64,000 nt of DNA from an uncultured Bacilli bacterium (GCA_947628585.1 CANRAL010000002.1:1343-65342); one strand, 5' to 3'; positions 2,200-57,713 are shown, counted from the stretch's first letter. Numbers and translations: made by a program. The notes: generated by a model from the sequence alone, not told the origin.

Positions 2200-2225
2200 T
2201 TTTTCCTCCTATAAAAAAATAAAAA

Positions 2226-2460
2226 TTCATAAACTTCTTAAGGACGAGTTTTTCCCGCGGTACCACCTTAGTTTATGAATTTTTTTCATACTCTTTTATC
2301 GATAAGGGAATTATCCCGATTTTGCTCCACAATTGAAATTCATTTTAAATATCCTTAAAACTCTTCCACCTTTAAGTTTCTCTCTTTAAATTACTATTTA
2401 AAACTACTTAGATTGCATCCTTACAACTTCTCCCTTATTTTAACAATTTTTTTGCTATTA
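2226..2460 (-). promoter_or_regulatory. T-box leader (tRNA-responsive antitermination element) upstream of pheST
   Basis: Minus strand shows the conserved T-box core GGTGGTACCGCGG (plus-strand 2254..2267). It sits inside a long terminator helix (TTCATAAACT...AGTTTATGAA) followed by a T-run. Confidence 0.7.
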
Positions 2461-2472
2461 CGCAAGAACTTT

Positions 2473-3249: not shown

Positions 3250-3321
3250 TTACCTTACACTTCCCAATTATTATTATAACCAAACTTTAATAAAATAGCA
3301 ATGCCCAGAAAATGTTTTAAA

Positions 3322-3350
3322 CATCAAAAAAAGGAATAAATCCTTTTTAT
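3322..3350 (-). terminator. Hairpin plus T-run overlapping the tadC stop codon, between tadC and the SipW gene
   Basis: Minus-strand AAAAAGGATTTATTCCTTTTTTT. Confidence 0.4.
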
Positions 3351-5040: not shown

Positions 5041-5050
5041 TTTATCACCT

Positions 5051-6172
5051 TTATAAGCTTTCTATTGGAGTATTAAAAGCTTCACTATTACTATTTTCAT
5101 CTGTTCCTATATCATCATTATTAACAAAGTAATGAGGATTAAGTTCAACTCCTTGAACTCCTAAATATTCTAGTAAATATTTACTAGGATTATGAAAAGT
5201 AAATGTACCATCCAATCTCTTTTTAAATATTATATTAGAACAAGCTTCATTTTTATCATTTACATAAAATTCAACTACTTCAATAATTTCTCTTTGGAAA
5301 CGTCCTAATTCTTTACTCATATAACCTTTTACATGAACGCCAATTTGAACATAACGGTGAATAGAAGTTAAGAATTGTTCAATATCAATATTATTTTCTA
5401 GCAAACTATATAACCGCATAGGAATATTTAATGCTCTATCGGAGTGAATAGTAGAAATAATATTGTGCCCTGATGAAATAGAGTTTCTGACAGCCATTAC
5501 AGCTTCAGCACTACGAACTTCGGATAATAAAATCCATTTAGGGTTTTGCCGCATGCAAGTAACCAATACATCAGTATAAGATGCAATATTATTAGTTTTT
5601 ACGGCTACAATATCCCGATGAGGAAATATTTTATCTAAGTGCAATTCCAAAGTATCTTCAATAGTTATTATTTTTTCATTTTCTTTAGTATGGCTAGCTA
5701 AATATTTAACTAATTCAGTTTTCCCACTACCAGTTTCCCCACTTACAATAATATTGCAGTGTCCTTCAACACAAGTAAGCAAGAAATCATGTAAGTTTTC
5801 AGTTACATATTGTTCGGATAATAATTTTTCTTTATTTAATCTTATCTTCGCAGGTGTTTTTCTGATAGTACATGATATTCCATTAGTTGCAATGGAATCA
5901 TGAATAAAGTTAAGCCGTAATTCAGCTGACTCAGCATCCAAAAAAGGATGGGCCATATTAAAGGATTTTCCCATAACATTTGAACATTGAAAGGCAATTT
6001 TTTCCATTAATGCATTATTTATTTCCGGTCTTTCAATGCGATAAACCCCTTTATCAAGAGTTTTTAGATGAATTTGGCCATTGTTTGAATAAGATATATC
6101 GGTTATATTATCTGCCTCTAAAAACTCTTTTAAAGGGCCAAAATCTATTTGTGAAAATATTGCATCTGTCAC
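5051..6172 (-). CDS. CpaF/TadA-family secretion ATPase (VirB11/GspE superfamily)
   Basis: Walker A VSGETGSGKTE. Asp box IITIEDTLEL. Walker B-like KWILLSEVR. His box ISTIHS. Length is 373 aa. Confidence 0.85.
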   Translation of the reverse strand: MTDAIFSQIDFGPLKEFLEADNITDISYSNNGQIHLKTLDKGVYRIERPEINNALMEKIAFQCSNVMGKSFNMAHPFLDAESAELRLNFIHDSIATNGISCTIRKTPAKIRLNKEKLLSEQYVTENLHDFLLTCVEGHCNIIVSGETGSGKTELVKYLASHTKENEKIITIEDTLELHLDKIFPHRDIVAVKTNNIASYTDVLVTCMRQNPKWILLSEVRSAEAVMAVRNSISSGHNIISTIHSDRALNIPMRLYSLLENNIDIEQFLTSIHRYVQIGVHVKGYMSKELGRFQREIIEVVEFYVNDKNEACSNIIFKKRLDGTFTFHNPSKYLLEYLGVQGVELNPHYFVNNDDIGTDENSNSEAFNTPIESL

Positions 6173-6193
6173 AATTAGTCACCTCTTTAATTT

Positions 6194-6961
6194 CTAATAT
6201 GTAGCTTCTTCTGTTCTAGAATTAATATATTCTATTAATCTTTGACTACCTATAGTAGTTTCCCCTTCAAGTTCAGTATAATATCTTCCTCTTGGAACAG
6301 GGAATATTTCAACTCCACTTATATATTCGCTACTTTTTAATAAATGGAATATTTCATCAGTTACTCCAAATACTAAGAAAGCTGGAGTTCTAGTTGTACT
6401 AGCATCAAAAACATTTTGATTTTGATTATCTTTTACACCAATAACTTTTATACTACCAATTAATTTACCAACAACAATGGTTCCATTATCATTAGCTTTC
6501 ATATAAAGGTCAATATAATTACCTGGATAAATTGAATTACCAAAAGTAGTTCGATTAGTTACTGGTAATTGATAAGAAGTATATCCTTCAGGTAAGTCAC
6601 TAAACATTGAATCTGGTAATTCATCACTACTTACAACTTGATTATTATAAAATAACCCACCTTCAGGAATTGAAGTACCTACGTTAACAAAATTACCAAC
6701 AATTTTATTAACATCAGTTATAATATTAATATTTTTTAAAAAATCACGGCTAATTTCAATATATTCTATATCATCTTTAGTTATTTGCGTAGCAGCCGAT
6801 ATTGATTTAACTGCATAAGGAACTCTTACAGGATCGATAGCTTTATTAACGCGATAATTATATCCAACCCATAAGACTATAACTCCAGCGATTATTCCAA
6901 ATATTGTAACCGTATTTTTATTAGTAATAAATTTTTTAACAAAATTAATTATATTACCCAT
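6194..6961 (-). CDS. CpaB/RcpC-like Flp pilus assembly protein (N-terminal TM plus SAF-like domain)
   Basis: A single N-terminal TM is followed by the VRVPYAVKSISAATQITKDDI SAF-like segment. The C-terminal TPAFLVFGVTDEIFHLLK resembles the CpaB C-domain. Confidence 0.55.
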   Translation of the reverse strand: MGNIINFVKKFITNKNTVTIFGIIAGVIVLWVGYNYRVNKAIDPVRVPYAVKSISAATQITKDDIEYIEISRDFLKNINIITDVNKIVGNFVNVGTSIPEGGLFYNNQVVSSDELPDSMFSDLPEGYTSYQLPVTNRTTFGNSIYPGNYIDLYMKANDNGTIVVGKLIGSIKVIGVKDNQNQNVFDASTTRTPAFLVFGVTDEIFHLLKSSEYISGVEIFPVPRGRYYTELEGETTIGSQRLIEYINSRTEEATY

Positions 6962-6977
6962 TTTTATCCTCCTTTAT

Positions 6978-8789
6978 TTAAATAGCACTCCAGAAGTTTG
7001 CACCAACACCACCAGTTGCTTTTTTCAAACGATTATAACAATTAGTATCTTGGAAGTGCCACCATTCACTTGCTAAATAATCTAGTCCAGCTCCGGTCAT
7101 ATATTTCATTAGCTTTTCGGCATCACTACCACTCCAACCTTTTATCCGAGTTGTTTTACTTTGACTAGTAAAGACGGCAGCTTTATTACTTAACTCATGC
7201 ATAGCTGATGGCATATTACCACCTTCAAGTGTAATATCAACAGCACAACCAACATTGTGAGTTGATAGAGAAGATGCTAAGAACCATCCTTGACCCCAAC
7301 CATCCATACCTTTAAGAACAGCAGGTTTATTCACAATTGTTGAAAATTGTCTACTACCAGCTAAAGTAACACTTCTTGGCCGATAAGCATCCATAACTAC
7401 TAAAGTATCTCCGCCTCTCGCGGCATTTCTTGCAGCAGTTTTAAGTTCTTTAGCAAAACCATATATTACAGGAACAAAATCCCGATATACAGATGAATAT
7501 AATTGTCTACCAGTTATACCTGGAATATCATAACCACTAGATTTATAAATAGCACTATAAGCATTTTTAATATCAGTTTTTATTTCTGGGGCATAGTCTA
7601 CTAAACTAATAGCCATATTATTAGCCTTAATCCAGCCACATTTTCCAGTTTCTTCAATTTTAATAGCCCAATACTCAATATTAGTATACGTAGATACCCT
7701 TGAACCTAAAATAGTAAATATTTTCCCAGCAGATAATTTACCACTTTCGTTTTCACCAGAGAATACTCGATACAAGGTTTCTTTAACCATTGGTGTACCA
7801 CGCATACCTGCAAGTGATGTATCAGCAATAAAATCAGGGTCTTCCAAACAAGAATCATTATTAGCAACAACCCGAACGGTATTTTCTACTTCATTAGATT
7901 TATTACCATCAACATCAATAGCATAAGCTCTTAATTTATGTTCACCAGAGCTTACATTCTTAAATGTATATGAATTAGAATCACTTTCTACCCAAGTAGC
8001 TCCATCATCTTCACTAAAATAATATTTTTTAATTTTCTTTTCACTAGTAACTACAACTTCAGCAGTTACATTATTATTACTATTATCTTTAACATTTAAT
8101 TTATTTGCTTCTATACCAGAATTCGATTCTGTTCCAGTAGATCCACTACCTGTATTTGATGAGCCACTGCCAGAACCAGTTCCAGTTGAACTATTTCCAG
8201 AACCCGTTCCTGTTCCGGTTCCAGTTCCAGTTCCTGATGAACTTCCACTTCCAGTGCCGGTTGAGCTATTTCCAGAACCAGTTGATCCACTGCCAGAACC
8301 GGTTCCAGTACTAGAAGAACTACTACCAGAACCACTGCCTGTACTTGATGAGCCACTACCAGTGTTTTTACCTGCGTTTGGTCCTAAAACACTTCCTTCG
8401 ATTATAGCATCGATTCTATTTACAATATCAAATTCCGTAGAATCTCCAACTACACTAAATGTTCCTGACTTTCCACTTATTTCAACACTAGCTTTAGGTG
8501 GGGCTTCATAAACATCATAAAAGCTTATTTCATATGAATTAGTCAATTGGGCATTTTCAGCAAATCTTCTTATAAATATTTCATAAAATTTTTCTTTATT
8601 CATTTTTATTTCGCCATATTGACGATAATATGCGAAGTCAACAGCATCTACCATTGCAGCTTCGGTTAATTCTTTAATTAAGAAATAATCTTGTTGGTTA
8701 TTAGTAGTTACACTTTGAACTAATAACATAATAACCACAATAAATACCCCTAATAAAATTAGCCAATATGTCCAAAAAGCATTTTTCAC
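6978..8789 (-). CDS. Membrane-anchored multidomain cell-wall hydrolase: Gly/Ser/Thr linker, Ig/Fn3-like domain, SH3b-like domain, C-terminal VanY/M15-family D,D- (or L,D-) peptidase
   Basis: N-terminal signal anchor. ~100 aa (GSGSST)n low-complexity linker. GWIKANNMA SH3b-like motif. LAS/M15 signatures STHNVGCAVD (H-x6-D) and SEWWHF (E-x-x-H). Confidence 0.65.
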   Translation of the reverse strand: MKNAFWTYWLILLGVFIVVIMLLVQSVTTNNQQDYFLIKELTEAAMVDAVDFAYYRQYGEIKMNKEKFYEIFIRRFAENAQLTNSYEISFYDVYEAPPKASVEISGKSGTFSVVGDSTEFDIVNRIDAIIEGSVLGPNAGKNTGSGSSSTGSGSGSSSSSTGTGSGSGSTGSGNSSTGTGSGSSSGTGTGTGTGTGSGNSSTGTGSGSGSSNTGSGSTGTESNSGIEANKLNVKDNSNNNVTAEVVVTSEKKIKKYYFSEDDGATWVESDSNSYTFKNVSSGEHKLRAYAIDVDGNKSNEVENTVRVVANNDSCLEDPDFIADTSLAGMRGTPMVKETLYRVFSGENESGKLSAGKIFTILGSRVSTYTNIEYWAIKIEETGKCGWIKANNMAISLVDYAPEIKTDIKNAYSAIYKSSGYDIPGITGRQLYSSVYRDFVPVIYGFAKELKTAARNAARGGDTLVVMDAYRPRSVTLAGSRQFSTIVNKPAVLKGMDGWGQGWFLASSLSTHNVGCAVDITLEGGNMPSAMHELSNKAAVFTSQSKTTRIKGWSGSDAEKLMKYMTGAGLDYLASEWWHFQDTNCYNRLKKATGGVGANFWSAI

Positions 8790-8807
8790 CTAAAAGTCAC
8801 TCCCTTT

Positions 8808-11800
8808 CTATTTCCAAGCAGGACCACCAACAATAGATTCATTATATGTATATCCATCCCATGGTGTCCAATATCCACTATTTACTACACTTTCTGGTGT
8901 TCTACTTCCTGAATCTCCTGCTCCTCTATTCTTTATGTATACTTTATCTCCGTAATTATTTACTAAGTCATCTATAAAACTACTATAACAGAATACATCT
9001 TTATATACGGCATTATTTGGTGCTTCATAGTCATAACATGTTAAGGTATTATTTCCATATCCACCAACTTGCTCTTTATTATAATCTCTTATATGTTGGA
9101 TCATATCTGAACTTAATTGAATACTAAATTCTAATTTTGAATCTGGATCATCTTTATCATCATTATATATTGTTGTATTACTTTCTTCTATTTCTTTTAT
9201 TGTTTCTTCAGCTTTATCTCTTACTAATGATAATTCTGATAATGTTGTATTTACATTCCAGTTATATCCATATTCTCTTCCGGCTGATTCTGTAAATCCT
9301 CCTGATGTTGTTACTGATTTAAAGTTCAATTGTAATTTATCTAAGTTAAAGATACAGTTTACACATTCTATATCACATGTTGGGCAAGGTACCCATTCGC
9401 AATATTCTCCTTCACACACGAAGTCACATTGTGGACACATATTATCATCTGGTATACATGTTGTATAGTAATGACATACATATTCACCATTCCATGTATC
9501 AGTTCCATTTACACCTTTGGCATTGGCAACACTTCTTTGTTCATTTTCACCGCCAAAGTCGATTAATCTACCTAAATCTCCTGAATCATAGAATTCACCT
9601 AAATCTTCAATTTTTAATCTAAAGATTCCACCTCCATTTGCATCTGATGACAATGGTAATCCATGTCCTGATCCATCTGGTTCTCCTACAGGTACTACTT
9701 GTAGATTTGGTCCACTATAATTTTGATTTGTTACATGACCACTCATTGGTCCACTTGATACTATTTGATAAAATACTGTTGGTGTTAAATATTCTTGAGT
9801 TGTTTCTTCAAATTTTTGTTTAGCAAATTTAGCTTTTGATACATCTTTTTCATCTTTTTTACATCCTTCAGTTGAACAAATTGTATGAGATCTTTTTTCT
9901 AATAATGATTCTGGACTTGTCCATCCTGAACTACATTCTTCGTACTTATTATCTACGTCTTCTTCACAAGCCATCAATGTTCCTTCAGGTCTTGTTGTTC
10001 CACTTATCATTTCTAGATATTTAGCATCATCTGATACTAATTTCATATATTCTTCAATATCATATTCCCATGCTATTTTATCTTCAAACTTAAATTCACT
10101 TTCCCATTCTGTTGAACATGAATTAAAGTTTTCAATTGTATTTTCATATCTTGTTTGTAGCTTTTCAAGTGCTTCTGAAGCTTTTGATAAATCATTTTCT
10201 ATTTGACTTGTTACATCACTTTCATTTTCTCCAGTATATTTAAATTTATGTGTTTCTCCCTCGTCAGTAACTTCTCCTGTTTTTTTATTAGTAGTTCCTA
10301 CTTTTCTACCAGCATAATTTCCTTCTACATACCAATAATCTGTTTCTTCATGATAGCCTATAATAGTCCCTGTTTCTTCATCAATATCTTGTATTTTTTT
10401 CTTATGTTCTTGTATTGTATTTCCTTGAGCTACTTTTGCTTTAGTATATAAATCATACATATCAATAAAGTTTGTTTGAATTTCAATTATGTCTTCTAAA
10501 TATTTATCTACATCTATTTGTTTTCCTTTAGTTGTTCCTTTACCACGATAGCAGTCCATACTACCAGTTACTTTAGCTTTTAATTTAAAGTATCCACCAC
10601 AATTTAATTTGTCTATAGCTTTATTTAAGACTATTTCCCGATAATCTTCTTTACAGAAAGTATCACAATAATCATTGCTTATGCCTCCGAGACTTTCATC
10701 TAACTTATATGTATTTCCAGCATCATCAACATTTTCAATAATACATTTCTTTATATCTTCAGGAGCTATTACTGAGCCAACTCCATCATCTTCTTCACTA
10801 CATATTGGTGTAGTTAGTGTTGTATCACAAGCTACTCCTAAACATTCAATAGGCATTATATATTGTAAAGTTTTATCTTGTTTATTTGATTCAGAAGTAA
10901 CATAATCATTAGGAATTACACCTACATATCTTTGTGTACCTTCTGAAATTTGATCATCAAATAAAGCAATAGATATATCTTTAGTTTCTGGTACTAAATA
11001 ATTAACCGTTATATTTCCACATGTTTCAGATTCAGTCATTTCTTTGTGAATAGTAATTTTTATTTTTACATTTCCATCTTCATCTGCAAAGTTAGAAATA
11101 TCAATTCTTTCACCAAGTTCTTTCCACTCACCATTTTCTTGATATTCAACTTTTTCTATTGTTATGCCATTTTCAGCACAATTATTACAAACTATATCAC
11201 TTCTGCCTACTTTAACATATCCATCTTTATTTTTAGTTATCTTAAAATTTACTATTTTTTCTTCAGTATTTCTATCTATTTTCACACTATTAGATGTTAC
11301 ATTAACTTCTGTATCATCATCTATTCCACCTTTATTAAAAAATTCGTATGCCGCATCTATTCCCTTTTGAATTAAATTTTTGGCTTTAGTAACCGTACTT
11401 TTTCCACCAGTAATAGCATAATTTTTACTAGGTTTTTTTATAGATACGCCTAAGGCAGATATTTTATCTTTATTATTTATTGCCATTCCATATCCTAAAT
11501 TCATAACTGCATATTTAGCTTGAACCCTACTTACATCGTCAGATTCATAATTTTTGTCGTCTAATCCCATTATTTCATTAAAATAAGCCCGTACAGCTAA
11601 ATCGGTAGCAGTTATATCACTGGTATTTGATGTAGTTGATTTAGCACCATTTTCTAAAATTGTATATAAGCCATAATATAAAGCTCTAGTTTCAAGTGAT
11701 GTTCCAGCATTGCCAAAATCAAAAATTTGTTTAACCTTTACTGTACTATTTCTAGCATTATTTAAATCTACTGGATCTACGCAATATAATTTAACTTGTT

Positions 11801-32543: not shown

Positions 32544-33074
32544 ATGAATACCCCAAATAATAAAAGAAAAAAAGAAACTAAAGATAAAATAAATAAAGTA
32601 TTTATAAATTTATTACAAACTAAAGAAATAAATGAAATTTCCGTTACAGATATTTGCAAATTAGCCAAAATAAATCGTTCTACTTTTTATGTCAATTATC
32701 TTGATATTTATGATCTAGCGGACAAAATCGGCCAAGAATTAGAGCAAGATGTTTTATCTTTATATCAAGAAGAAAGAGAAACAAATCATAATTCTAATAA
32801 CTTTTTAAAACTATTCAAACATATAAAAGATAATCAATTGTTTTATAAAACTTATTTTAAATTAAAAATGGATCAAAACTTTATAACTCAAGAATATGAT
32901 TATCATTTATCAAAAAAATTATATGATGATAAATATATAGACTATCATATGGAATTTTTTAAGGCAGGACTTAATGCTATTATTAAAAAGTGGCTTAGTA
33001 ATGAATGCAAGGAATCACCAGAAGAAATTGAAAATATTTTAAAAAGTGAATATAAAAATAAAAATTTAATTTAA
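32544..33074 (+). CDS. TetR/AcrR-family transcriptional regulator
   Basis: N-terminal HTH ISVTDICKLAKINRSTFYVNY. Confidence 0.75.
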   Translation: MNTPNNKRKKETKDKINKVFINLLQTKEINEISVTDICKLAKINRSTFYVNYLDIYDLADKIGQELEQDVLSLYQEERETNHNSNNFLKLFKHIKDNQLFYKTYFKLKMDQNFITQEYDYHLSKKLYDDKYIDYHMEFFKAGLNAIIKKWLSNECKESPEEIENILKSEYKNKNLI

Positions 33075-33853
33075 AATAAACCCCATTCGGCAAATTTTTC
33101 AAAACCACCAATGTTTTTTATATATTCCCAAGCTTCATCAACAATTTGGCAATAAGGTTTACCATCTATTAAAGTATCTCCAATAGCACAACTAATTTCT
33201 ACTTTTTTCTTTAATTCTTGAGCTTTTTTAAAAGCATAAATATTTAAAGAAACATCAGCTTTAGATAAATCTTTGCCATGTAATCCACCACCAGTAATAC
33301 TATGTCCCATATCGGAACCTAATTTTCTATTAGTTGCTCCACTATCTACATTTATACCACCCGTCCAATAACCTAAAGGATTAATAATAGCCTTTGAATA
33401 ATCTTTAACTAAATCGCTTTCTAAAGCATGACTTTGGCAAATAATTAATTTATTTTGATCTAAAATATATTTGCCATCATAAGGATATTTTTGATATATT
33501 TTTCGCGCAATTGTTGCTAATTTTATTTCTTCTTTAGTTAATGGTTCTCCTTTAAAAATTCCATTATCACCACATCTAATTTCATTTTCTTGATTTATTG
33601 CTAAATGTTTATCTTGTTTATAAATTTTTAAATCTAATGTAATATCTCCCGCGATTCTTTTAATAATTTTTTTAATTTCCCCTTTTAAAAATTGTTCGGA
33701 AGTTTCTATTATGATATGACAAATACCATGACCAATTAAAACTTCAACTGCTACCTTAGGATTCTTATTCTTTGTATAAGCAAGGTCAACTATAGCCCCC
33801 GCGATACGATCAGCTATCTTATCAGGATGACTTGGATTTACTTTTTCAATCAT
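33071..33853 (-). CDS. Compact S-adenosylmethionine synthetase-like protein (~260 aa, start at internal ATG 33853 behind a GGAAGGAG RBS)
   Basis: MAT signatures SHPDKIADRIAGAIVD (GHPDK box), CGDNGIFKG (GAGDQG-like) and GGGLHGKDLSKAD (GGGAFSGKD box). It is ~120 aa shorter than canonical MetK. A SAM-I riboswitch lies upstream. Confidence 0.55.
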   Translation of the reverse strand: MIEKVNPSHPDKIADRIAGAIVDLAYTKNKNPKVAVEVLIGHGICHIIIETSEQFLKGEIKKIIKRIAGDITLDLKIYKQDKHLAINQENEIRCGDNGIFKGEPLTKEEIKLATIARKIYQKYPYDGKYILDQNKLIICQSHALESDLVKDYSKAIINPLGYWTGGINVDSGATNRKLGSDMGHSITGGGLHGKDLSKADVSLNIYAFKKAQELKKKVEISCAIGDTLIDGKPYCQIVDEAWEYIKNIGGFEKFAEWGLF

Positions 33854-33929
33854 TATTAACACTCCTTCCATCAAAAGTAAATTAGTCATTAAAATTGCTT
33901 TTTCATAAATACTCCTTTCTCGCATCTCA

Positions 33930-34060
33930 TAAAAAAACACCCAAGATAACCTTGAGTATTAAAGTTATCTTATAGATCTAGCATTACCACCTAATTTAAT
34001 AGGTTGGTGCGACTTCATAGGGCTAGTCCCTCCATCGCTCTTTATAAGATGTTGAAATAA
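33930..34060 (-). promoter_or_regulatory. SAM-I (S-box) riboswitch with terminator expression platform
   Basis: Minus strand reads CTTATAAAGAGCGATGGAGGGACTAGCCCTATGAAGTCGCACCAACC...GGTGGTAATGCTAGATC. A terminator GATAAC...GTTATCTTGGGTGTTTTTTT follows. Confidence 0.8.
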
Positions 34061-36235: not shown

Positions 36236-36384
36236 TTTTTCTCCTTTCCCTTATAATAATACAAATTTTTTTAAAATTTAACAGGAAATAAAACAAGGGT
36301 TCTATTTATTTTAGAACTTGTCTAGTCTAATATAATTTACAAAAGTGGCCAAACCCCATAGATTATAAATGAGGGAGGAAATAA

Positions 36385-36662
36385 ATGAATTATTACAATA
36401 CGGCTTTACAAAAAATTAAATGTGCTCAGCAACAATTTAGTACAGCAGGTTGTTGCTGTATAGGAAATATTGGACCAACTGGGCCAACTGGACCTCAAGG
36501 GCCAGCGACAATTACTGTAGGGACCACAACTACAGGAGCACCCGGTACTCCAGCCTCAGTTGTTAATGTCGGAACAACCGAAAATGCCATTTTAAATTTT
36601 ACAATTCCTGAAGGAATAACCGGACCAACTGGGCCAACTGGTGCGACAGGTGCAACTGTATA
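36385..36662 (+). pseudogene. Collagen-like (BclA-like) protein, 5' portion, interrupted by element 2
   Basis: N-terminal domain plus GPTGPTGPQGP...GITGPTGPTGATGATV Gly-X-Y triplets. The frame stops 8 codons after the junction. Confidence 0.7.
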
Positions 36663-36790
36663 TAGTAAAAAGTGGCACTTTTATTAATATGTCAAAAATT
36701 GGATGTCAATCGGCTAGATATTTATTTACAGTTAACATATATTATTATATAATGCTATTAAGAAATTAATTTAGAAAGGAATTTGAAAAA

Positions 36791-38161
36791 ATGAAAAAAA
36801 TGTCAGACAAAGCAATTAAAGGATTACTTTTTGCTTCGGGAGTTGTTACCGCGGGAATTTGTACTCTAGCTATTAAAAACAATACATTTGATACAGATAA
36901 TAAAGATACTTTAAATCTAGTTGAAAATGAAGTAATGGGAGTTGAAAATGCTAATCTTTTAGAACAAGCTCAAAAAGAAGTTGATGAAGCCCAAGCTCAA
37001 GTAAAGATGGCTGATGTTGAATTACAAGAAGCCACAAAAGAACAAGAAGCGGCTGAAGCAGAAGTTAAAAATGCTACAGAAGTTTTTGAAAAAGCTCAAA
37101 AAGCCAAAAGTGAAGCGGAAGCTCAAGTAAAAGCTGCTAAAACAGAAGAAGAAAGAAGAGTAGCGGAAGAAAAAGTTAAAGCTGTTGAAGCGCAAATAGA
37201 AAAAGCAGAAAGTGCTAAAAAGGCAGCGGAAGCTAAAGTTCAAACAGCTGTAGAAAATACTAAAAAAGCGGAAAATGTAAAAAAAGAAGCGGAAAAATTA
37301 GTTCAAAAAGCTGAAGATAATAAAAAGAGTGTTGAAGAACAAGTAAAAAAAGAACAAGCTCAAAATATTATTACAGAAGATGAAACAAAGAAAACAGAAA
37401 CTAATGTTGAACAAGTAAAAGAAACTGAAGTAAAACAAACAGAAACTAAACAAGTTGAAACAAAAAAAGTCGAAGAACCTAAAAAGTCCGAAGAAGTTAA
37501 AAAATCTGAAGAATCTACATCCGAAAATAGAACTTTACCTCAATGGGCACTAGATGCTGCAGCAAGAAGTGAACAAGCGGCAAAAGAAGAAGAAGCTAAA
37601 AGAGAAGCCCAAAAAGCTATAGATAAAGCCAATGCTGAGGCGGAAAGAAAAGCTCAAGAAGAGGAAGAAGAAAGATTAAGACAAGAACGCGAAGCTTGGG
37701 AAAAAGAAATCCAAAGACAAAGTGAAGAAGTTAATAGTCGGACTAATGAAAGTAAAGAAGATTTACCGGGAGATAGAACATTTACATTTAAAAGTGCTCC
37801 ATCTAATGCTGAAGAAGAAAGATACATTCAATCTTTAGATAGAGTTATATCAAATGTTAGTGAAGTTGTTGATACGCATTCAAAAATAACTGTTGATAAA
37901 ACAAGCAACCTTGCTAAAGGCCAAATTTGGTGGGTTGAAATGAGTTGTAATCTAACAATGTGTGAAGGATTCCCAGGACATTTCAATACTGCTAAAGTAA
38001 GTGTAAGACTTGAAGGATTACGTGATTCTGTAAATAATATTACCCTTACAGCGCCAACTGCTAAAGCAGGTTATAGATTTGTAGGATGGAAAACTTATAC
38101 AGTTAGATATAATAATGAAATTAATATAAGAGGATACGAAGCTGTATACGAAAAAATGTAA
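36791..38161 (+). CDS. Membrane-anchored coiled-coil protein with Ala/Glu/Lys-rich repeats (456 aa), cargo of element 2
   Basis: N-terminal TM. ~250 aa of EAEAQVKAAK/KAAEAKVQ-type helical repeats. C-terminal globular domain with Cys pair. Confidence 0.5.
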   Translation: MKKMSDKAIKGLLFASGVVTAGICTLAIKNNTFDTDNKDTLNLVENEVMGVENANLLEQAQKEVDEAQAQVKMADVELQEATKEQEAAEAEVKNATEVFEKAQKAKSEAEAQVKAAKTEEERRVAEEKVKAVEAQIEKAESAKKAAEAKVQTAVENTKKAENVKKEAEKLVQKAEDNKKSVEEQVKKEQAQNIITEDETKKTETNVEQVKETEVKQTETKQVETKKVEEPKKSEEVKKSEESTSENRTLPQWALDAAARSEQAAKEEEAKREAQKAIDKANAEAERKAQEEEEERLRQEREAWEKEIQRQSEEVNSRTNESKEDLPGDRTFTFKSAPSNAEEERYIQSLDRVISNVSEVVDTHSKITVDKTSNLAKGQIWWVEMSCNLTMCEGFPGHFNTAKVSVRLEGLRDSVNNITLTAPTAKAGYRFVGWKTYTVRYNNEINIRGYEAVYEKM

Positions 38162-38353
38162 TATAATTAATTTAAAGAAGGTAATTTAAACTATCTTCTT
38201 TTTTTTGGCTTTAAAAATATTTATTCAGAATAAAATATTATCAAAGGAGGTTTATTATGAATGTTATAAGTCATTTTAATGCTAAAGGAGAAAAATTAAC
38301 AATAATAATTGAAGAATTATTAAAAGAATATTATAAAAATATATAAAATTATT

Positions 38354-39949
38354 ATGTATGATAATTTTTTAAGATTTGTAAATGTAATAAACTATGTTAT
38401 TTATGCTCGTCTTTCTAAAGAAGAACAAGGGAAAAGTCCTGAGGAACAAAGTCGAAGTATAAAAAATCAAATAAAAGTATGCCAAAATTACATTGAAGAA
38501 GAAAAAAAGACTTATCCTAATTGTAAATTTATAGAAGTAGCTATTTTAAAAGATGATGGAATATCGGGAACAACATTTAATAGAGAAAATTTTAATGAAC
38601 TGGTAAAATTAATTGAACAAAAACAAATAAATATGGTTATAACTAAAGACTTATCAAGACTTGGTAGAGACCATATTCAAACCGATGATTATATTGAAAA
38701 ATGGTTTCCCGAACATAATGTTCGTTATGTTTCTATCATGGAAAATATTGATACTTATGTCGATTCTGTAAGTAATGAAATTGCCCCGATTATCAACTGG
38801 AGTAATGAAAACTTTGCTAGACAAACTTCTAAAAAGATTAAAAAAACATTTAAAGAATATCGTCAGGAAGGAAAATGGACTGGAGGAGAAATTCCATTAG
38901 GTTATAAAAAAGATCCTCATAATAAATATCATTTTATAGTAGATGAAAAAGGTAAAGAAATTGTAGAAAGAATATTTAATTTAGCTTTGGAAAACAATAG
39001 TATTGAAAAAATTACTAAAATTCTTACAAAAGAAAATGTTCCCCTTCCCTCTTTAGTAAAGAAAAATGCAAGAAAACTAAGGGTTAATATTTGGTCTAGT
39101 AATACTATTAAAGCTATTTTACAAAATGAAATGTATTTAGGACATATGGTTCAAGGAAAAACAACTCGTTTAAATCATAAATCAAAAAAAATTATATATC
39201 TTCCTAAAAATCAATGGACTATTGTTAAAAATACCCATGAACCGATAATTGATATTAATACATTTAATAATGTTCAATTATTATTTAAGGCTAGTAAAAA
39301 TAAATCTTTTAAATCATTAGATTATCTTTTAAAAGGATTAATAAAATGTAAGGAATGCCAACATAGAATTAGTTTACAAACTTACCCCAAAAGAAAAAAA
39401 TGTTATACAATATGTAATTATTATCGAAAATATGGTAGCAAAAAAAATGTATGTACTGCCCATAGATTTAATTACAAAGATTTAGAAAATTTAATTTTAA
39501 CCAATATTAAAGAAGAATGTTTTTCCCATATTGATAAAAATAATTTAATAAATATAATTAAAAATTATCAAAAAAATAATCAAACAATAAATAATATTAA
39601 AAATAATATAAATAAAAGTAATCAAGAAATTACTAAATTAAAAAACCAAATTAATCAAATTTATAATGATAAATTAGAAGGAATTATTACTAAAGAACAA
39701 TATCAAAATATAACCAAAAATAAATATGAATCTCTGGAATATGAAAAAAAGAAATTACTTTGGCAAAATAATCAATTAGCTAAAATAGTAAAAAAGCAAA
39801 GTATGAACCAAAACTATACAAAAATTATTGATGATTTTTTATCTTTAAAAAATCCTTATAGATTAATTATATTAAATTTAATTGATGTAATCTATTTAAG
39901 TGAAAATGGGAATATAGATATTTATTACAAAATTCAAAAACCTTTATAG
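38354..39949 (+). CDS. Large serine recombinase (second copy, divergent paralogue of 26138..27754)
   Basis: YARLSKEEQG...IKNQIKV catalytic region. DLSRLGRD. Cys cluster CKECQH...CTAH. C-terminal coiled coil. Length is 531 aa. Confidence 0.9.
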   Translation: MYDNFLRFVNVINYVIYARLSKEEQGKSPEEQSRSIKNQIKVCQNYIEEEKKTYPNCKFIEVAILKDDGISGTTFNRENFNELVKLIEQKQINMVITKDLSRLGRDHIQTDDYIEKWFPEHNVRYVSIMENIDTYVDSVSNEIAPIINWSNENFARQTSKKIKKTFKEYRQEGKWTGGEIPLGYKKDPHNKYHFIVDEKGKEIVERIFNLALENNSIEKITKILTKENVPLPSLVKKNARKLRVNIWSSNTIKAILQNEMYLGHMVQGKTTRLNHKSKKIIYLPKNQWTIVKNTHEPIIDINTFNNVQLLFKASKNKSFKSLDYLLKGLIKCKECQHRISLQTYPKRKKCYTICNYYRKYGSKKNVCTAHRFNYKDLENLILTNIKEECFSHIDKNNLINIIKNYQKNNQTINNIKNNINKSNQEITKLKNQINQIYNDKLEGIITKEQYQNITKNKYESLEYEKKKLLWQNNQLAKIVKKQSMNQNYTKIIDDFLSLKNPYRLIILNLIDVIYLSENGNIDIYYKIQKPL

Positions 39950-39962
39950 TGCCACTTTTATA

Positions 39963-40576
39963 TATTTACAACAGGACCAGTAGGGCCTGCACCAACTTTA
40001 GCGGTCGGTCCTGTAACTACTCTACCACCAGAATCAGAAGCCACAGTTGGTATTACGGGTCAAGATGGTAATTATACTTTAACCTTTTCAATACCTCAAG
40101 GGGCAACTGGCGAAACGGGTCCAACTGGAGCTACTGGCAATGGCTTAGCTGCCTATGGAGGCTTGTATAATGCCACTCCTAATGATACTTTAACCTTTAC
40201 AGATGGTAATGCTACGGAAGTTACTTTAGGCACTGCAATGACTGATGTTAATATTACCGCGAATGGAAATGAAATAACTATTATCGAACCTGGTGACTAC
40301 GAAATATCTTATGTTTTAACTGTAACATCTACAGCTGGAGCTAATAATGTAGAGTTTGGGGTTCGACAAAATGATGTTGATATAACAGCTACTGAAGTAA
40401 CTAAAAATTTAACGAGCAATACGCCCATCACTTTCAGTGGTAATGTTATTCTTAATCTTGGGGCAACAGATACAATTGATATGCAATTAACTAATCCGGC
40501 AGCTTCAGGAAATGTGGCTATTAATGAAGCTACATTAGTTGTTAAAAAATTAAGTACTGCTACTCCTACAAATTAA
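39963..40576 (+). pseudogene. Collagen-like (BclA-like) protein, 3' portion: remaining Gly-X-Y repeats plus C-terminal beta-rich (BclA-C/C1q-like) domain
   Basis: In-frame TGPVGPAPTLAVGPVTT...GATGETGPTGATGNGLAAYGG continues into the listed ORF 40163..40576. That ORF has no independent RBS-start context. Confidence 0.7.
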
Positions 40577-40604
40577 TTTAAAAAGACAAGTTTTATCCTT
40601 GTCT

Positions 40605-41321
40605 TTATCTTTTTATTGAATTTTTTAAATACCCATCTACTTCTTCTTTAATAGGTATTTCTTTAATAGTTTTATATAAAAATTTAGCATTTATAGCTTC
40701 TATCATTGATCTTTCTTCTAAAAATTTAGCAAAACCTCTTACATCAACATTATTAATAAAATCATAATATTGTTCAGTTTCTTTTTCACTTATTACAACT
40801 GGGGCATAACCTTCATGAAAGAAATGAATATTCATTATAGTTCGACATAGTCTTTTATTACCATCTTCAAAAGGATGAATTCGCATCAAAGCAATGTGAA
40901 ACATAGCCTCTTTTTCATACACGTTATCTAAAGCAGACCAAACATTATAATAATTATTTAATAAATTATATAATTCATAATAAATCCTTTGAGGTGGTAC
41001 AACTTCCCAATTAACATTAAAACGAGCGATAACATTTATTTTACGAAAATCAGCAATTCCATTATGTTCATTTATAATATTGCCAATTTTTTGAATATCC
41101 GCGGGGCTCATTTTTTCCAAAGATGACAAAGCCATTTTAAAAGCTTTAAGTAAACTATCAATCATATTTTGTCTTTTTTCTTCATTATCACTATGTTCAA
41201 CATCTTCAATTGAATAAACAAAGCGATCTAAAAAATTATCTAAATAGATATTTCGAAATTCTTCGTCTTGCAATATTTTGCGATATATTTCCAATGCGGT
41301 AGTACTCACTAATATCACCAC
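40605..41321 (-). CDS. Fic/DOC-family protein
   Basis: Fic motif HPFEDGNKRLCR. Confidence 0.8.
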   Translation of the reverse strand: MVILVSTTALEIYRKILQDEEFRNIYLDNFLDRFVYSIEDVEHSDNEEKRQNMIDSLLKAFKMALSSLEKMSPADIQKIGNIINEHNGIADFRKINVIARFNVNWEVVPPQRIYYELYNLLNNYYNVWSALDNVYEKEAMFHIALMRIHPFEDGNKRLCRTIMNIHFFHEGYAPVVISEKETEQYYDFINNVDVRGFAKFLEERSMIEAINAKFLYKTIKEIPIKEEVDGYLKNSIKR

Positions 41322-41397
41322 CCAATTATATTATAACATGTTTTTAAACTTTTTGCATAGATTTTAAAGAAAGAAGGAATTTTTTATAAAAATATGT

Positions 41398-42465
41398 GTA
41401 TATGCTATATCTAAAAACGAAGAAAAATTTGTTGATCGTTGGTATAATTCTATTAAAGATGCTGATGAAATAATTGTTTTAGATACTGGTTCAACTGATA
41501 AAACTATAGAAAAGTTAAAAAAATATAATATTAAGGTTTTTGAACAAGAAATAAAACCATGGCGTTTTGATAATGCCCGTAATTTATCACTAGACTTAGT
41601 TCCGAGCGATACTGACGTTTGCATTTGTTTAGATTTAGATGAAGTTATTTTGCCGGGTTGGCGCGAAGAAATAGAAAAAATTTGGCAAAAAGATACTACG
41701 CGTTTACGATACATTTATAATTGGTATTTGGAAAATGATATTCCTAAAGTATCTTTTTACTCGGAAAAAATTCATTGTCGAAATAATTTTAGATGGGTTA
41801 ATCCCGTTCATGAAATTTTAAAATATGAGGGAGAAGAAAAACAAATATATACTAATAATTTAATAATTAATCATTACCCAGACCGAAGTAAATCGCGAAG
41901 CAATTATTTACCCCTTCTAGAACTAAGTGTTAAAGAAAATCCTCAAAACGACCGAAATATGCATTATTTAGGAAGAGAATATATGTATTATGGTAAATGG
42001 AATGAAGCAATTGATACATTAATTAAACATTTAAAACTCAAAACGGCAACATGGAAAGATGAAAGATGTGCATCTATGCGCTTTATATCTCGTTGTTATA
42101 AAAACTTAAATCGTTTTGATGAAGCCGAAATGTGGTTAAAAAAGGCAATCAATGAAGCTCCTTATTTAAGAGATCCCTATGTAGAAATGGCTATGTTAAA
42201 ATATGCTTTTGAAGATTATTCGGGAATCATTGAATATGGTGAAAAAGCCTTAAAAATTAAACAAAATAAAAAAACTTATATCAATGAAATATTTAGCTGG
42301 GATGAAACGATTAATGACTTACTTTCCCTTGCCTACTTTAATATTCACGATATTGATAAAGCTATAAAAAATGCTAAAGATGCTTTAAAAATAAATTCCC
42401 AAAACGAAAGAATTAAAGAAAATTTAAAAATATTTAAAGAAACTAAGAAAAAAATAGAAAAATAA
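41398..42465 (+). CDS. Family-2 glycosyltransferase with C-terminal TPR repeats (5' end uncertain)
   Basis: In-frame CVYAISKNEEKFVDRWYNSIKDADEIIVLDTGSTDKT (GT2 N-terminus) is contiguous with the listed ORF 41650..42465. TPR-like C-terminal half. No in-frame ATG exists after the upstream stop at 41364. Confidence 0.55.
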   Translation, partial: VYAISKNEEKFVDRWYNSIKDADEIIVLDTGSTDKTIEKLKKYNIKVFEQEIKPWRFDNARNLSLDLVPSDTDVCICLDLDEVILPGWREEIEKIWQKDTTRLRYIYNWYLENDIPKVSFYSEKIHCRNNFRWVNPVHEILKYEGEEKQIYTNNLIINHYPDRSKSRSNYLPLLELSVKENPQNDRNMHYLGREYMYYGKWNEAIDTLIKHLKLKTATWKDERCASMRFISRCYKNLNRFDEAEMWLKKAINEAPYLRDPYVEMAMLKYAFEDYSGIIEYGEKALKIKQNKKTYINEIFSWDETINDLLSLAYFNIHDIDKAIKNAKDALKINSQNERIKENLKIFKETKKKIEK

Positions 42466-51155: not shown

Positions 51156-51246
51156 ACAAATACATAATATCATAAAAACGACTTTTTTACAAGTCGTTCT
51201 CCTATTTCTACTCAAAAGTCCGAGTTTGGTATCATTCTGGTGCTGG
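51156..51246. repeat. Direct repeat copy 2 (includes the tRNA terminator hairpin and the tRNA 3' end)
   Basis: See copy 1. Contains AACGACTT-TTTTAC-AAGTCGTT hairpin. Confidence 0.6.
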
Positions 51247-51313
51247 AAGTGGGACTCGAACCTACGACCTACGCGTTACGAGGGCGTTGCTCTACCAACT
51301 GAGCTATTCCAGC
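51238..51313 (-). tRNA. tRNA-Thr (anticodon CGU), CCA encoded
   Basis: Minus strand reads GCTGGAATAGCTCAGTTGGTAGAGCAACGCCCTCGTAACGCGTAGGTCGTAGGTTCGAGTCCCACTTCCAGCACCA. Cloverleaf has a 7-bp acceptor stem, a GTTGGTA D-loop, a CTCGTAA anticodon loop and a TTCGAGT T-loop. Confidence 0.7.
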
Positions 51314-55537: not shown

Positions 55538-56056
55538 TTAAAACAAGAGCATTGTAAGAAGAAAAGCCATCACTATTCCAACTAAATCCGCGAAAAGACC
55601 AACGCCTAATGAATAACGAATTTTTTTGATACCTATAGAGCTAAAATATAAAGCTAAAACATAAATAGTTGTATCCGTACAACCTTGTAAAATAGATGCT
55701 AATCTTCCTAGATAAGAATCGGGACCAAAATTTAGAAAAATATCATTCATAATTGCTAAAGATGCCGTTCCTGAAACTGGTCTAAGTAAAGCCATAGGCA
55801 TAATTTCTATAGGAATATTTAAAAAATCTAAGATACCTTTAAAGGCCTTAAGTAAAAAATAAATAAAATTACTATCTAAAAAAATATTAATGGCAAAAAC
55901 CATAGCTATAATTGCTGGAAAAATATTTAAAGTTATATTTAAGCCTTCTTTTGCCCCTTCTAAAAAAGAATCATAAACATTTATTTTCTTTTTAAAACCA
56001 TAAAAAATAACTATAACGACAAATAAAGGAATCACAATTTTCGATAAAATATTCAT
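55538..56056 (-). CDS. spmB: Spore maturation protein B
   Basis: Gate/nucleoside-recognition membrane domain, 172 aa. Overlaps the spmA stop. Position is downstream of dacB-spmA. Confidence 0.8.
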   Translation of the reverse strand: MNILSKIVIPLFVVIVIFYGFKKKINVYDSFLEGAKEGLNITLNIFPAIIAMVFAINIFLDSNFIYFLLKAFKGILDFLNIPIEIMPMALLRPVSGTASLAIMNDIFLNFGPDSYLGRLASILQGCTDTTIYVLALYFSSIGIKKIRYSLGVGLFADLVGIVMAFLLTMLLF

Positions 56057-56631
56057 TTTTTTCTTCTCCTAATAATATAATCTAAAATTAAGCCCGCGAA
56101 ACTCGAATAAAAAGTAGCAATTATCCCGGGAATAATTATTTCACTAGGATTAAGACTATTATGAGCTATTCTTAACGCTAAAACCGTAGTAGGTACTATT
56201 GTTACTCCCGCGGTATTTAAAACTAAAAAAGTTATCATGGCTTCACTGGCCGTATCTTTCTTTTTATTTATTTTTTGAAGTTCTTTCATTGCTTTTAAAC
56301 CAAAAGGGGTCGCCGCACTACCTAGTCCCATCATATTCGCCGCAATATTTGAAGCAATATATCCTAAAGCGGGATTATTCTTAGGAATACTGGGAAAAAG
56401 ACGAGATAATAAAGGTTCTACTAATTTAGCAAATTTTTGTAAAAGTCCTGAATCTTCGGCAATTTTCATAATTCCCGTCCATAAGACTATTATAGGTAAA
56501 ATAGAAATAACAATATCAAAACCTTCTTTACCATTAGTTAAAATACTGTTATTTATGGTATCTAAATTTCCTGTGATAAAAGCAAAAAATATTCCTACTA
56601 AAATTAAAAATATCCAAATATAATTTACCAT
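56053..56631 (-). CDS. spmA: Spore maturation protein A
   Basis: 192-aa membrane protein with an SpmA-like N-terminus (IWIFLILVGIFFAF...). Overlaps the dacB stop. Confidence 0.8.
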   Translation of the reverse strand: MVNYIWIFLILVGIFFAFITGNLDTINNSILTNGKEGFDIVISILPIIVLWTGIMKIAEDSGLLQKFAKLVEPLLSRLFPSIPKNNPALGYIASNIAANMMGLGSAATPFGLKAMKELQKINKKKDTASEAMITFLVLNTAGVTIVPTTVLALRIAHNSLNPSEIIIPGIIATFYSSFAGLILDYIIRRRKK

Positions 56632-57713
56632 TTTTTAAACCACCCAAATAATTTTTGCCAAAAGTTTTCTTTTTCTTTTTTACCATTAATATAAATATTT
56701 ACTTCTTTTATTAATTTATCTTTTAAATAAATTTCTGCTTTACCAATAATATCATCATTAACTATTTTATTTTTTTCAATTAATACATAATTTATATTTA
56801 AATTCTTTTTTTCTTTTTCTTTAAGCGGAATAAATACATCATCTTTAATATATAAATTATAATCCTTATATAATTTATCTTTTTTTATTTTAAAATTATC
56901 TTTAGATAAAACTTGATATGCCTGATAATTATTAAATACTTCATTATATAAAGTTAAATGATCTTCAAAGTCATTACCATCATTTAAGGTAACAATAACT
57001 AAATTTATATTATCTTTAGATGCCGTTGTAACTAAAGTTCTTCGCGCTTTTTCGGTAAATCCCGTTTTACCTCCCGTTATAAAATCATACTTATGAATAA
57101 GCCGGTTTTTACTTTGCCAAGTATAAGTTTTTTTATTGGTTTTAACTGTTTTACTTTTAGTTTTAAATATTTCTCTAAAAGTGGCATTTTGATAAGCATA
57201 TTTAGTAAGTAAAGCCATATCATAAGCTGTGGAAATATTACCTTTACCACTTTTTTCTTCTAAACCATGGGCATTATAAAAAAAAGTATCTTTCATACCA
57301 ATATTTTTGGCTAAAACATTCATTAAATAAGCAAAATTTTCCATACTACCTGCCACATTTTTAGCTATAACCATCGCCGCATCATTACCACTACGAAGCA
57401 TTAAACCATAAAGTAAATCTCTTAAAGTTAATTCTTCCCCAACTTCAATATAAATGGAGGAACCAAAAGCTTGATATATTTCTTCTCCCACTGTCACTTT
57501 TTTATCAATATTGGCATTTTCAATAGTTACTATCGCCGTCATAATTTTAGTAATAGAAGCAATTAATCTTTTTTCATGAATATTATTTTCATAATAAATT
57601 CGATCATTATCTAAATCCATTACAATTGCACTCGATGCACTAATAGCTAAAACTTTAATTGGTAAAAATAAAATTAAACAAAACAAAACTACTTTTTTCA
57701 TATGTCCCCTCAT
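56625..57713 (-). CDS. dacB: D-alanyl-D-alanine carboxypeptidase, S11 family (sporulation DacB-like)
   Basis: SITK (SxxK), SGN and KTG motifs. Signal peptide present. Operon with spmA-spmB. Confidence 0.85.
   Translation of the reverse strand: MRGHMKKVVLFCLILFLPIKVLAISASSAIVMDLDNDRIYYENNIHEKRLIASITKIMTAIVTIENANIDKKVTVGEEIYQAFGSSIYIEVGEELTLRDLLYGLMLRSGNDAAMVIAKNVAGSMENFAYLMNVLAKNIGMKDTFFYNAHGLEEKSGKGNISTAYDMALLTKYAYQNATFREIFKTKSKTVKTNKKTYTWQSKNRLIHKYDFITGGKTGFTEKARRTLVTTASKDNINLVIVTLNDGNDFEDHLTLYNEVFNNYQAYQVLSKDNFKIKKDKLYKDYNLYIKDDVFIPLKEKEKKNLNINYVLIEKNKIVNDDIIGKAEIYLKDKLIKEVNIYINGKKEKENFWQKLFGWFKKW

Follow-up and report, generated by a model that had tools for sequence, protein, structure and literature searches.

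Positions 36385..40576 (+ strand) of a 64,000-nucleotide window from an uncultured Bacilli bacterium (GCA_947628585.1, CANRAL010000002.1:1343-65342) carry a collagen-like gene of the BclA type that is split by a 3,316-bp element encoding a large serine recombinase (LSR); throughout the text, "the window" is this whole stretch. An earlier note made from the sequence had placed here a Gly-X-Y open reading frame (ORF) starting at 36385, and the ORF list bears it out. The 5' half of the gene (36385..36656, +) includes 90 codons and the letters AC of codon 91 (Thr). When the element is integrated, this half reads into it and stops at 36687, and the resulting ORF of 100 amino acids (aa; 36385..36687) starts with MNYYNTALQKIKC...CCC, continues with a beta-rich module and GITGPTGPTGATGAT, and ends with ten unrelated codons (VYSKKWHFY and the stop). 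The 3' half (39973..40576, +) encodes a second beta-module, a short Gly-X-Y run, and a BclA_C domain; according to the ORF list and the raw sequence this downstream frame is open from 39950 to 40576, and a terminator-like hairpin follows the gene (40582..40606, +).

Several lines of evidence define the identity of the split gene. The N-terminus of the 5' half is 87% identical to that of the intact gene at a related locus (L001), and its leader is a conserved Cys-rich sequence, MNYYNTALQKIKC...CCC, which is common to the homologues and differs from the exosporium-targeting motif of Bacillus anthracis BclA. The Pfam BclA_C profile scores 37.0 bits on the downstream frame, just below its cut-off of 38, and the homologous proteins P0001-P0003 carry this domain (PF18573). 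The AlphaFold model of the 3' half, obtained with an alignment of 33 homologues, has a mean predicted local distance difference test score (pLDDT) of 84.6; a Foldseek search of the PDB ranks highest the BclA C-terminal domain of B. anthracis (3TYJ, 2R6Q, 2Z5W, 1WCK) and the exosporium proteins ExsF and BxpB, with target-normalised TM-scores of 0.71-0.76. These results support the assignment of the gene to the BclA type, as the earlier note had proposed, with a predicted BclA/ExsF fold. The Gly-X-Y sequence of the gene consists of three runs of five triplets each; the collagen-like region of B. anthracis BclA is longer than these short runs. Each half carries one copy of the beta-rich module (…TITVGTTTTGAPGT.ASV.N.GT..NAILNFTIP.G; 36505..36612 and 39980..40099), and the DNA segments 36591-36650 and 40078-40137 form a repeat with 72% identity. 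Many homologues of 170-230 aa stop after the second module (…IPQGPTGPAA) and have no BclA_C domain; they form a second natural class, which is the one targeted by the related elements at loci L009 and L092.

The limits of the element were established from its junctions with the split gene. An 11-mer, AAAAGTGGCAC, is present exactly twice in the window, in inverted orientation and once at each junction, in agreement with the inverted copies that had been noticed at the ends of the element; the sequence CAAC is common to both junctions. All possible joins were enumerated, and the candidate centres were ranked by the symmetry of the attP arms and by the reading frame. With the dinucleotide AC as the centre, the 23-nt attP arms are complementary at 19/23 positions, which is the best symmetry, and no other top candidate keeps the frame. 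On the basis of symmetry and frame, and for attL also of collinearity with the homologues, the crossover dinucleotides were placed at 36655..36656 (attL, +) and 39971..39972 (attR, +). The P' arm of attP, TGTATATAGTAAAAAGTGGCACT, lies at 36657..36679 (+), and its distal 11-mer is the sequence unique to the two junctions; the P arm, AGTGCCACTTTTATATATTTACA, lies at 39948..39970 (+) and shows the layout GTGCCACTTT-N11/12 followed by AC or GT. In contrast to the attP arms, those of attB are symmetric at 10/23 positions. Since the AC cores are identical and direct in attL and attR, and the arms on the element side are inverted, the geometry is that required for excision as a circle by a serine recombinase. 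The element delimited by the two AC cores spans 36657..39972 (+), and its removal gives a single ORF of 291 aa, which has the same layout as the intact orthologues and in which the break falls within codon 91.

Some details of the earlier description are modified by this assignment. The cut is in codon 91 and not after codon ~93, and the gene resumes at 39973 instead of 39963; likewise, the proposed TATATA crossover gives way to the AC core, given that its 6-nt register (offset 3300) is out of frame. A 4-nt TATA register is in frame and yields 297 aa, but it was also discarded because it adds VYIF to the collagen region and these residues are not present in P0001. Therefore, the prediction that the joined flanks encode one collagen-like protein in frame holds, whereas its length of ~297 aa, which includes the VYIF insert, does not. 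The alignment of the joined gene with the intact gene of L001 is gapless at the DNA level across the junction, and the unoccupied site of L001, GGAGCTAC/CGGACCA (the slash marks the junction), equals the joined flanks. Single intact homologues of the joined protein were found, i.e. P0001 (293 aa, 65% identity, 99% coverage), P0002, and P0003; P0001, the closest one, reads GATGATGPIGPAPTLAVGPV at the junction, without an insert. The joined flanks thus align with single intact BclA-like proteins, as the earlier note had anticipated. After excision, the predicted attB (36632..36656 joined to 39973..39997) would read ...CTGGTGCGACAGGTGCAACAGGACCAGTAGGGCCTGC..., and the attP of the predicted circle ...GTGCCACTTTTATATATTTACAACTGTATATAGTAAAAAGTGGCAC.... 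Taken from the sequence, the exact excisability of the element is well supported. The in-frame junction was dropped as a sign of selection or programming, since any clean site-specific insertion restores the frame on removal.

The element carries three genes. The LSR (38354..39949, +) is a protein of 531 aa with the Pfam domains Resolvase (PF00239), Recombinase (PF07508), and Zn_ribbon_recom (PF13408); these three domains, together with the single ORF obtained by excision in silico, agree with the earlier identification of an LSR element interrupting the gene. Residues Y17, R19, and S21 and the motif SRLGR are invariant across 29 homologues, and the TAG stop codon of the LSR overlaps the right (P) arm of attP. 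The earlier note had assigned to the element only the LSR and one coiled-coil protein; both genes are there, but a conserved ORF of 29 aa had been missed. This small ORF (38257..38346, +) has its own ribosome-binding site (RBS) and ends 7 nt before the start codon of the LSR. An equivalent ORF of 28-41 aa with an RBS is found in all five mini-elements of this type (those of the window, L089, L092, L009, and L046). Among the three closest elements, the substitutions at codon positions 1/2/3 are 3/4/11, 4/4/12, and 1/1/9, and because they fall mainly at third positions the small ORF is a real coding sequence. Its product is the sole candidate in the element for a recombination directionality factor (RDF). 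With the domains and catalytic residues of the LSR intact, and the small ORF under constraint, the recombination unit looks active.

The remaining gene, the cargo (36791..38161, +), was identified from the ORF list and from homologues in the same position, and encodes a coiled-coil protein of 456 aa. It is preceded by a sigma-A type promoter, TTTACA-17-TATAAT (36725..36753, +; 11/12 match), whose −35 region, spacing, and −10 region are conserved in the five elements. The protein includes an N-terminal hydrophobic anchor or signal, as read by eye from the sequence, a long coiled coil, and a C-terminal InlB B-repeat-like domain that carries a GYRFVGW motif and gives a weak match to Pfam Flg_new_2. 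An exhaustive search with this C-terminal domain returned 88 matches, where a word-based search gave one; the domain recurs at the end, or as internal repeats, of very large surface proteins. At the equivalent place, L089 and L092 have full-length homologues of the cargo, and L009 and L046 have partial matches, all at 37-42% identity. The cargo evolves fast, since this identity is observed between elements whose LSRs are 67-79% identical. Given its sigma-A type promoter, the cargo is most likely a vegetative surface protein.

A phage origin of the element was rejected, considering that the LSRs in IMG/VR are at most 33% identical and those of GenBank phages at most 36%, and that a PHROG search matched neither the cargo gene nor the small ORF. 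Besides these two, the LSR gene is the only other gene of the 3.3 kb; no replication gene was recognisable there with Pfam and PHROG, and no mobilisation gene was found among the three with the ORF list, Pfam, and PHROG. What can be said with certainty is that an integrative LSR element lies here within a coding region, and its sequence indicates a 3,316-bp non-phage cassette integrated by LSR chemistry. One explanation for such a cassette is a transposon similar to Tn4451 or Tn5397, in which both excision and insertion would be the work of the recombinase by itself, with neither an RDF nor developmental control. The element is indeed small and not derived from a phage, and the best PDB match of the LSR in a single-sequence search is the catalytic domain of TnpX (E = 2.8e-16). 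In contrast, the profile search places SprA/YokA of SPbeta first, as the closest solved relative over nearly the full length (E = 3.5e-22), no mobilisation gene is present, and a conserved small ORF under purifying selection occupies the position of an RDF. In addition, the different symmetry of the attB and attP arms is that of attP x attB systems, unlike the mimicry of transposon ends. For these reasons a transposon of this type seems very improbable.

The specificity of the recombinase was examined in its relatives. LSRs of 46-83% identity are many, and every such locus that could be fetched was examined (L089-L091, 79%; L092 and L046, 76%; L093, 69%; L009, 67%; L011, 51%; L010, 46%). In 8/8 of the loci examined with an LSR at least 46% identical, the element adjoins collagen Gly-X-Y coding sequence at GGN-NCN-AC/N-GGN, and the AC or GT next to the arm lies within the Thr codon of Gly-Pro/Ala-Thr repeats in every one of them. 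Wherever both junctions are available (the window, L089, L092, and L009), the joined flanks restore the collagen-like frame. At the junctions of all seven related loci, as in the window, 11-12 nt separate GTGCCACTTT from AC or GT; the distance between the arm and this dinucleotide is the same in all 8 related elements, and the layout of the arms is common to L089, L092, L009, L093, L011, and L010. In contrast, among ~160 loci with a distant LSR (27-45% identity) only one has any Gly-X-Y run, and this is not adjacent to the LSR; a scan of JGI metagenomes, in which the LSR relatives were at most 44% identical among the matches listed, served as the negative control for adjacency to collagen sequences. 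Judged by its insertion sites, this LSR clade is specialised for collagen repeats. By inspection, the DNA of a Gly-Pro-Thr repeat, GGNCCT-AC-AGGNCC, reads as a palindrome except at its centre, the AC of the Thr codon, a property noted for the attB of the window, L009, L089, and L092; collagen repeats are therefore inherently symmetric sites for an LSR dimer, which may explain both the choice of target and the multiple insertions. Among the homologues of the split gene, P0015 (219 aa) shares its first 22 residues almost exactly with the window gene and has no Gly-X-Y triplet, that is, no attB for this clade, and two BclA-type proteins, P0019 and P0023, start with MDKVIG followed at once by Gly-X-Y and look like 3' halves of genes split by another element.

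Two arrangements of the mini-elements were found. In type A (the window, L089, and L092) the 5' half of the target is followed by the cargo gene, the small ORF, the LSR gene, and the 3' half, all in the same direction. In type B (L009, 6090..9623; L046, about 6430..9018) the small ORF and the LSR gene point in the direction opposite to the cargo gene, and read in the sense of the LSR the central dinucleotide is GT. The co-orientation of cargo and target (5/5 mini-elements) was considered as a signal and discarded as not significant, because there are only two independent architectures. The same LSR clade is also carried by larger elements, in L093 together with SSB, DnaB, and RecA-like genes, and in L010 with an unannotated ORF of 796 aa upstream of the LSR gene. 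Some targets have received more than one element. In L092 (1..8002; GCA_947629315.1, CANRDB010000001.1) a single collagen-like gene contains three LSR elements in tandem, each at GCA-AC/TGG: the first ends at about 1316; the second (1438-4262) is a distinct 2.8-kb mini-element that encodes an LSR of 504 aa, an overlapping ORF of 49 aa, and a zinc-ribbon/transmembrane protein of 342 aa, and has TTGTCAAAAT arms; and the third (4317-7613) is of the cargo/small ORF/LSR type. In L089 a second element of the same clade (7812..7845; arm TAAAGTGACAC, core AC) begins 200 bp past the first in the same collagen-like gene, and extends into sequence that encodes a small resolvase and has genes resembling those of phages or plasmids. 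The target gene of L009 is also broken in its first beta-module (9872..9887) by a stop codon, after which a new RBS and ATG are found (…TDASVTIREV, stop, then MNNEINYVLDFIIPQG…).

The related loci belong to uncultured Bacilli, mostly metagenome-assembled genomes (MAGs) from rabbit gut. In L004 (GCA_947628445.1) and L005 the intact gene is followed by a GT2-TPR glycosyltransferase gene and then by nusG and secE; L001 has the intact gene and is syntenic through a Fic gene and the GT2-TPR gene, and its contig ends before nusG. The window shows the same order, with a sigH-like gene after secE and the Fic gene intercalated as in L001. This Fic-domain gene (40605..41321, −) lies between the collagen-like and GT2-TPR genes in the window and in L001, and is not there in L004 and L005. 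The earlier note had considered that relatives with two independent genes at this locus would speak against a split gene; single intact orthologues are found in L001, L004, and L005. The GT2-TPR gene (41386..42465, +; 86% identity over 351 aa to its L001 orthologue) is a conserved partner that also neighbours the collagen-like gene in L001, L004, L005, L009, and L092; an N-terminal truncation suggested by the ORF list was discarded, as the gene is full length when read from an ATA start. Elsewhere in the window, a Peptidase_S11 gene and two Gate-domain genes (192 and 172 aa) at 55538..57713 have the layout dacB-spmA-spmB, in accordance with the sporulation operon that had been recognised before. 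Outside these regions, the window includes a SAM riboswitch ahead of a protein of 289 aa whose match to SAM synthetase is limited to the N-terminal domain (33071..34050, −), a T-box leader (2237..2430, −), and one tRNA gene (51241..51313, −).

The time of expression of the split gene was approached through its promoter. In an alignment of four orthologues over the 150 nt that precede the start codon, the sequence CATAnnTTAT, with TTT(A/G)C 16 nt upstream, was invariant. In the window this corresponds to a promoter of the sigma-K consensus type at 36339..36365 (+), AC-N16-CATAGATTA, in the AC-N16-CATAnnnTA form of the B. subtilis sigma-K promoters. The full pattern occurs 2 times in the 64-kb window and 3.4 occurrences are expected by chance, so that the weight of this promoter rests on its position and conservation. 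From these data we infer that the split gene is a late mother-cell (sigma-K) gene, and together with the dacB-spmAB layout they lend support, short of proof, to a late mother-cell spore-surface gene in an endospore former. The spacer of this promoter contains a sequence, AAAAGTGGCC (36341..36350), that resembles the att arm AAAAGTGGCAC; it is partly kept in L001, which has no element (AAAAGTGACC), but in neither L004 nor L005, and this likeness is probably due to chance.

These observations suggest a mechanism in which the LSR-built cassette sits within Thr codon 91 of the BclA-type gene and, in vegetative cells, would express its coiled-coil surface protein. In the sporulating mother cell the product of the 29-aa ORF would act as the directionality factor and so allow the LSR to use attL and attR as its substrates; the spore-surface filament would thus be restored in a cell whose genome is later discarded, and the element would be kept in the genome of the spore, as occurs with skin, SPbeta, and gin. 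Excision would most likely take place in the mother cell because the host gene appears to be expressed late in that compartment, and since the mother-cell genome is discarded, repair of the gene would be costless to the element, following the logic of skin(Cd), SPbeta, and gin. The disrupted gene seems to be still in use, as suggested by its promoter and both halves, which are undamaged, and by the full-length GT2-TPR gene. By analogy with these systems, mother-cell-timed excision is a tentative proposal to which we give somewhat less than an even chance.

A number of observations weigh against this proposal. Neither an alignment of the five elements nor consensus scanning gave a recognisable sigma-E or sigma-K type promoter, which the earlier note had suggested to look for at ~38300, ahead of the small ORF and the LSR gene. 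The only conserved motif in this region, GAATAnAATA, fits no consensus cleanly, and the region upstream of dacB (CATATTCT), used as a local yardstick for sigma-E, was of no help; in DNA of 25% GC, consensus scanning is weak evidence either way. The joined proteins of 291 and 297 aa were both missing from an exact look-up among ~15 billion proteins, a result to be expected with or without excision, since gut samples contain little DNA from mother cells, and the exact LSR was located in six contigs from several samples (two places are shown), of which those read have the integrated form only. That the host, an uncultured MAG, sporulates would follow only from the dacB-spmAB-like operon and the sigH-like gene, and an RDF of 29 aa would not reach half the length of CD1234, which has 72 aa (PMC5025042). 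The GT2-TPR gene of the window has ATA where L001 has ATG, with a GAAGGA RBS upstream, which reflects either a weak non-canonical start or the early decay of a partner gene. Two or three elements stacked in one collagen-like gene could equally denote an expendable landing pad. Finally, the closest species (L001, L004, and L005) have the intact gene without the element, which would then not be an old fixed feature. The GT2-TPR proteins of these species are 73-86% identical to that of the window, and the identity is 52-55% for L009 and L092, which carry elements; a patchy distribution, with intact genes in close relatives and elements in more distant ones, is as expected of a mobile element. Accordingly, the element is first of all a mobile, target-specific cassette, from an LSR clade whose insertions into other collagen-like genes are independent of one another, occur in both orientations, and are at times arranged in tandem.

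The same facts can be read as the traces of a selfish integrative mini-element for which collagen repeats are a safe-harbour attB. Its insertion would simply inactivate a surface gene that the host can spare, and its excision would be rare and for movement only. Insertion of the same LSR clade, independently and in both orientations, into different collagen-like genes, its presence on replicon- or phage-like elements (L093, L010), and the pile-ups of three elements in L092 and two in L089 are all in line with this reading, as are the element-free close relatives, the lack of an assembled excised allele and of a sporulation promoter before the recombinase unit, and the ATA start of the partner gene. 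However, three species with an element (the window, L009, and L092) show no damage in either half, in the promoter, or in the partner GT2-TPR glycosyltransferase gene, which is full length, and a 3.3-kb element without transfer genes would be hard to keep if its cost were a conserved spore-surface protein. Moreover, skin, SPbeta, gin, yin, and the sigK insertion of B. cereus biovar anthracis are all excised during sporulation (PMC5595907, PMC4191935, PMC10747680, PMC10745906). We consider a purely selfish element rather unlikely, with enough in its favour to be taken seriously.

A different possibility is a reversible ON/OFF switch of the spore surface (phase variation), in which the circle would excise and re-integrate in dividing cells, through the LSR and the small ORF, to produce populations in which some cells have the collagen filament and others lack it. 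A complete unit for integration and excision is kept and attB is regenerated exactly; surface collagen-like proteins are typical targets of variation, and the yin element in yabG is reported to give rise to growth-phase-dependent mixed populations (PMC10747680). This possibility is improbable, because a 3.3-kb circle without a recognisable replication gene would presumably be lost on division, and the contigs that were read are integrated only, with no intact allele assembled. Returning to excision in the mother cell, a broader version can be proposed, in which a family of interrupter cassettes (LSR, a directionality peptide of 28-41 aa, and one surface cargo) would have specialised on palindromic Gly-Pro-Thr DNA and accumulate, one by one or in tandem, in the spore-surface collagen genes of gut Bacilli, all of them excised in the mother cell, where the filament would be rebuilt by one to three programmed deletions. 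We regard this version as unlikely; if true, no smaller developmental excision element would be known, the RDF would have under half the length of CD1234, and an exosporium structural gene would be the target of such an element for the first time.

The element is a candidate gene-intervening element of the sporulation type, and would represent a new class of target, an exosporium-type structural gene, with an unusually small candidate RDF. If its excision is timed to sporulation, the genes subject to developmental rearrangement would extend to a structural exosporium gene of the BclA type in an uncultured gut lineage, and a minimal self-contained recombination unit could be as small as ~2 kb (the small ORF, the LSR gene, and two 25-bp half sites). 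Whatever the timing, the LSR clade has a compact attP/attB pair, GTGCCACTTT-N11/12-AC in the element and GGNCCN-AC-NGGNCC in the host, and a pair this clear is of practical interest for the development of integrase tools. The palindromic collagen codon repeats provide a simple rationale for the choice of target, which bears on the variability of collagen-like surface genes.

In the literature, sporulation intervening elements were found in sigK, spsM, spoVFB, spoVR, gerE, and yabG, and full-text searches returned no report of an LSR element in bclA or in a collagen-like gene. In skin(Cd) of Clostridioides difficile, the gene of the LSR CD1231 is immediately upstream of the 3' half of sigK, and the 72-aa RDF CD1234 is under the control of sigma-E, which limits excision to the mother cell (PMC5025042). 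The element of the window resembles it in that an LSR element interrupts a gene of mother-cell sporulation, or so its promoter suggests, and in that the recombinase adjoins the 3' half; in skin(Cd) a small acidic protein is the RDF. In contrast, skin(Cd) is prophage-like, has 19 genes and a mapped sigma-E promoter, and targets a sigma factor, whereas the window element has 3.3 kb, three genes, a structural surface gene as its target, a candidate RDF of 29 aa, and no recognisable sporulation promoter. The excision of SPbeta from spsM in B. subtilis, carried out by SprA and SprB, is specific to the mother cell (PMC4191935), and SprA prefers a symmetric sequence within the coding region (PMC5595907). 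SprA/YokA is the closest solved full-length relative of the LSR described here, and the SPbeta target is a gene for spore-envelope maturation; nonetheless, SPbeta is an active phage with no cargo like the coiled-coil protein, and the similarity between the LSRs is detectable only by profile. The gin element in gerE of B. cereus ATCC10987 (GirC/GirX) is not a phage, its LSR needs a small extra factor, and its att site consists of imperfect inverted repeats around central dinucleotides (PMC5595907). These three traits recall the window element, in which the candidate for the small factor is the product of the 29-aa ORF; the window element is ~nine times smaller than the 28.6 kb of gin, an element that has three recombinase genes and whose excision was shown experimentally; the contrast in size rests on gin as the sole comparator with a confirmed size. 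Tn4451/Tn4453 (TnpX) and Tn5397 (TndX) are also small non-phage LSR elements with a circular intermediate and a similar catalytic domain. These transposons carry resistance and mobilisation genes, have a GA core, and are not known to need an RDF; in contrast, the window element has no mobilisation gene, its core is AC, its attB and attP are distinct, and it includes a conserved small ORF. The heterocyst elements of Anabaena belong to a different phylum and developmental programme, and rely mostly on tyrosine recombinases. These elements (nifD, fdxN, and hupL) interrupt genes that only a terminally differentiated cell needs, and are excised in that cell (cited in PMC7192596). The tandem interruptions of L092 and L089 would likewise need several excisions per gene.

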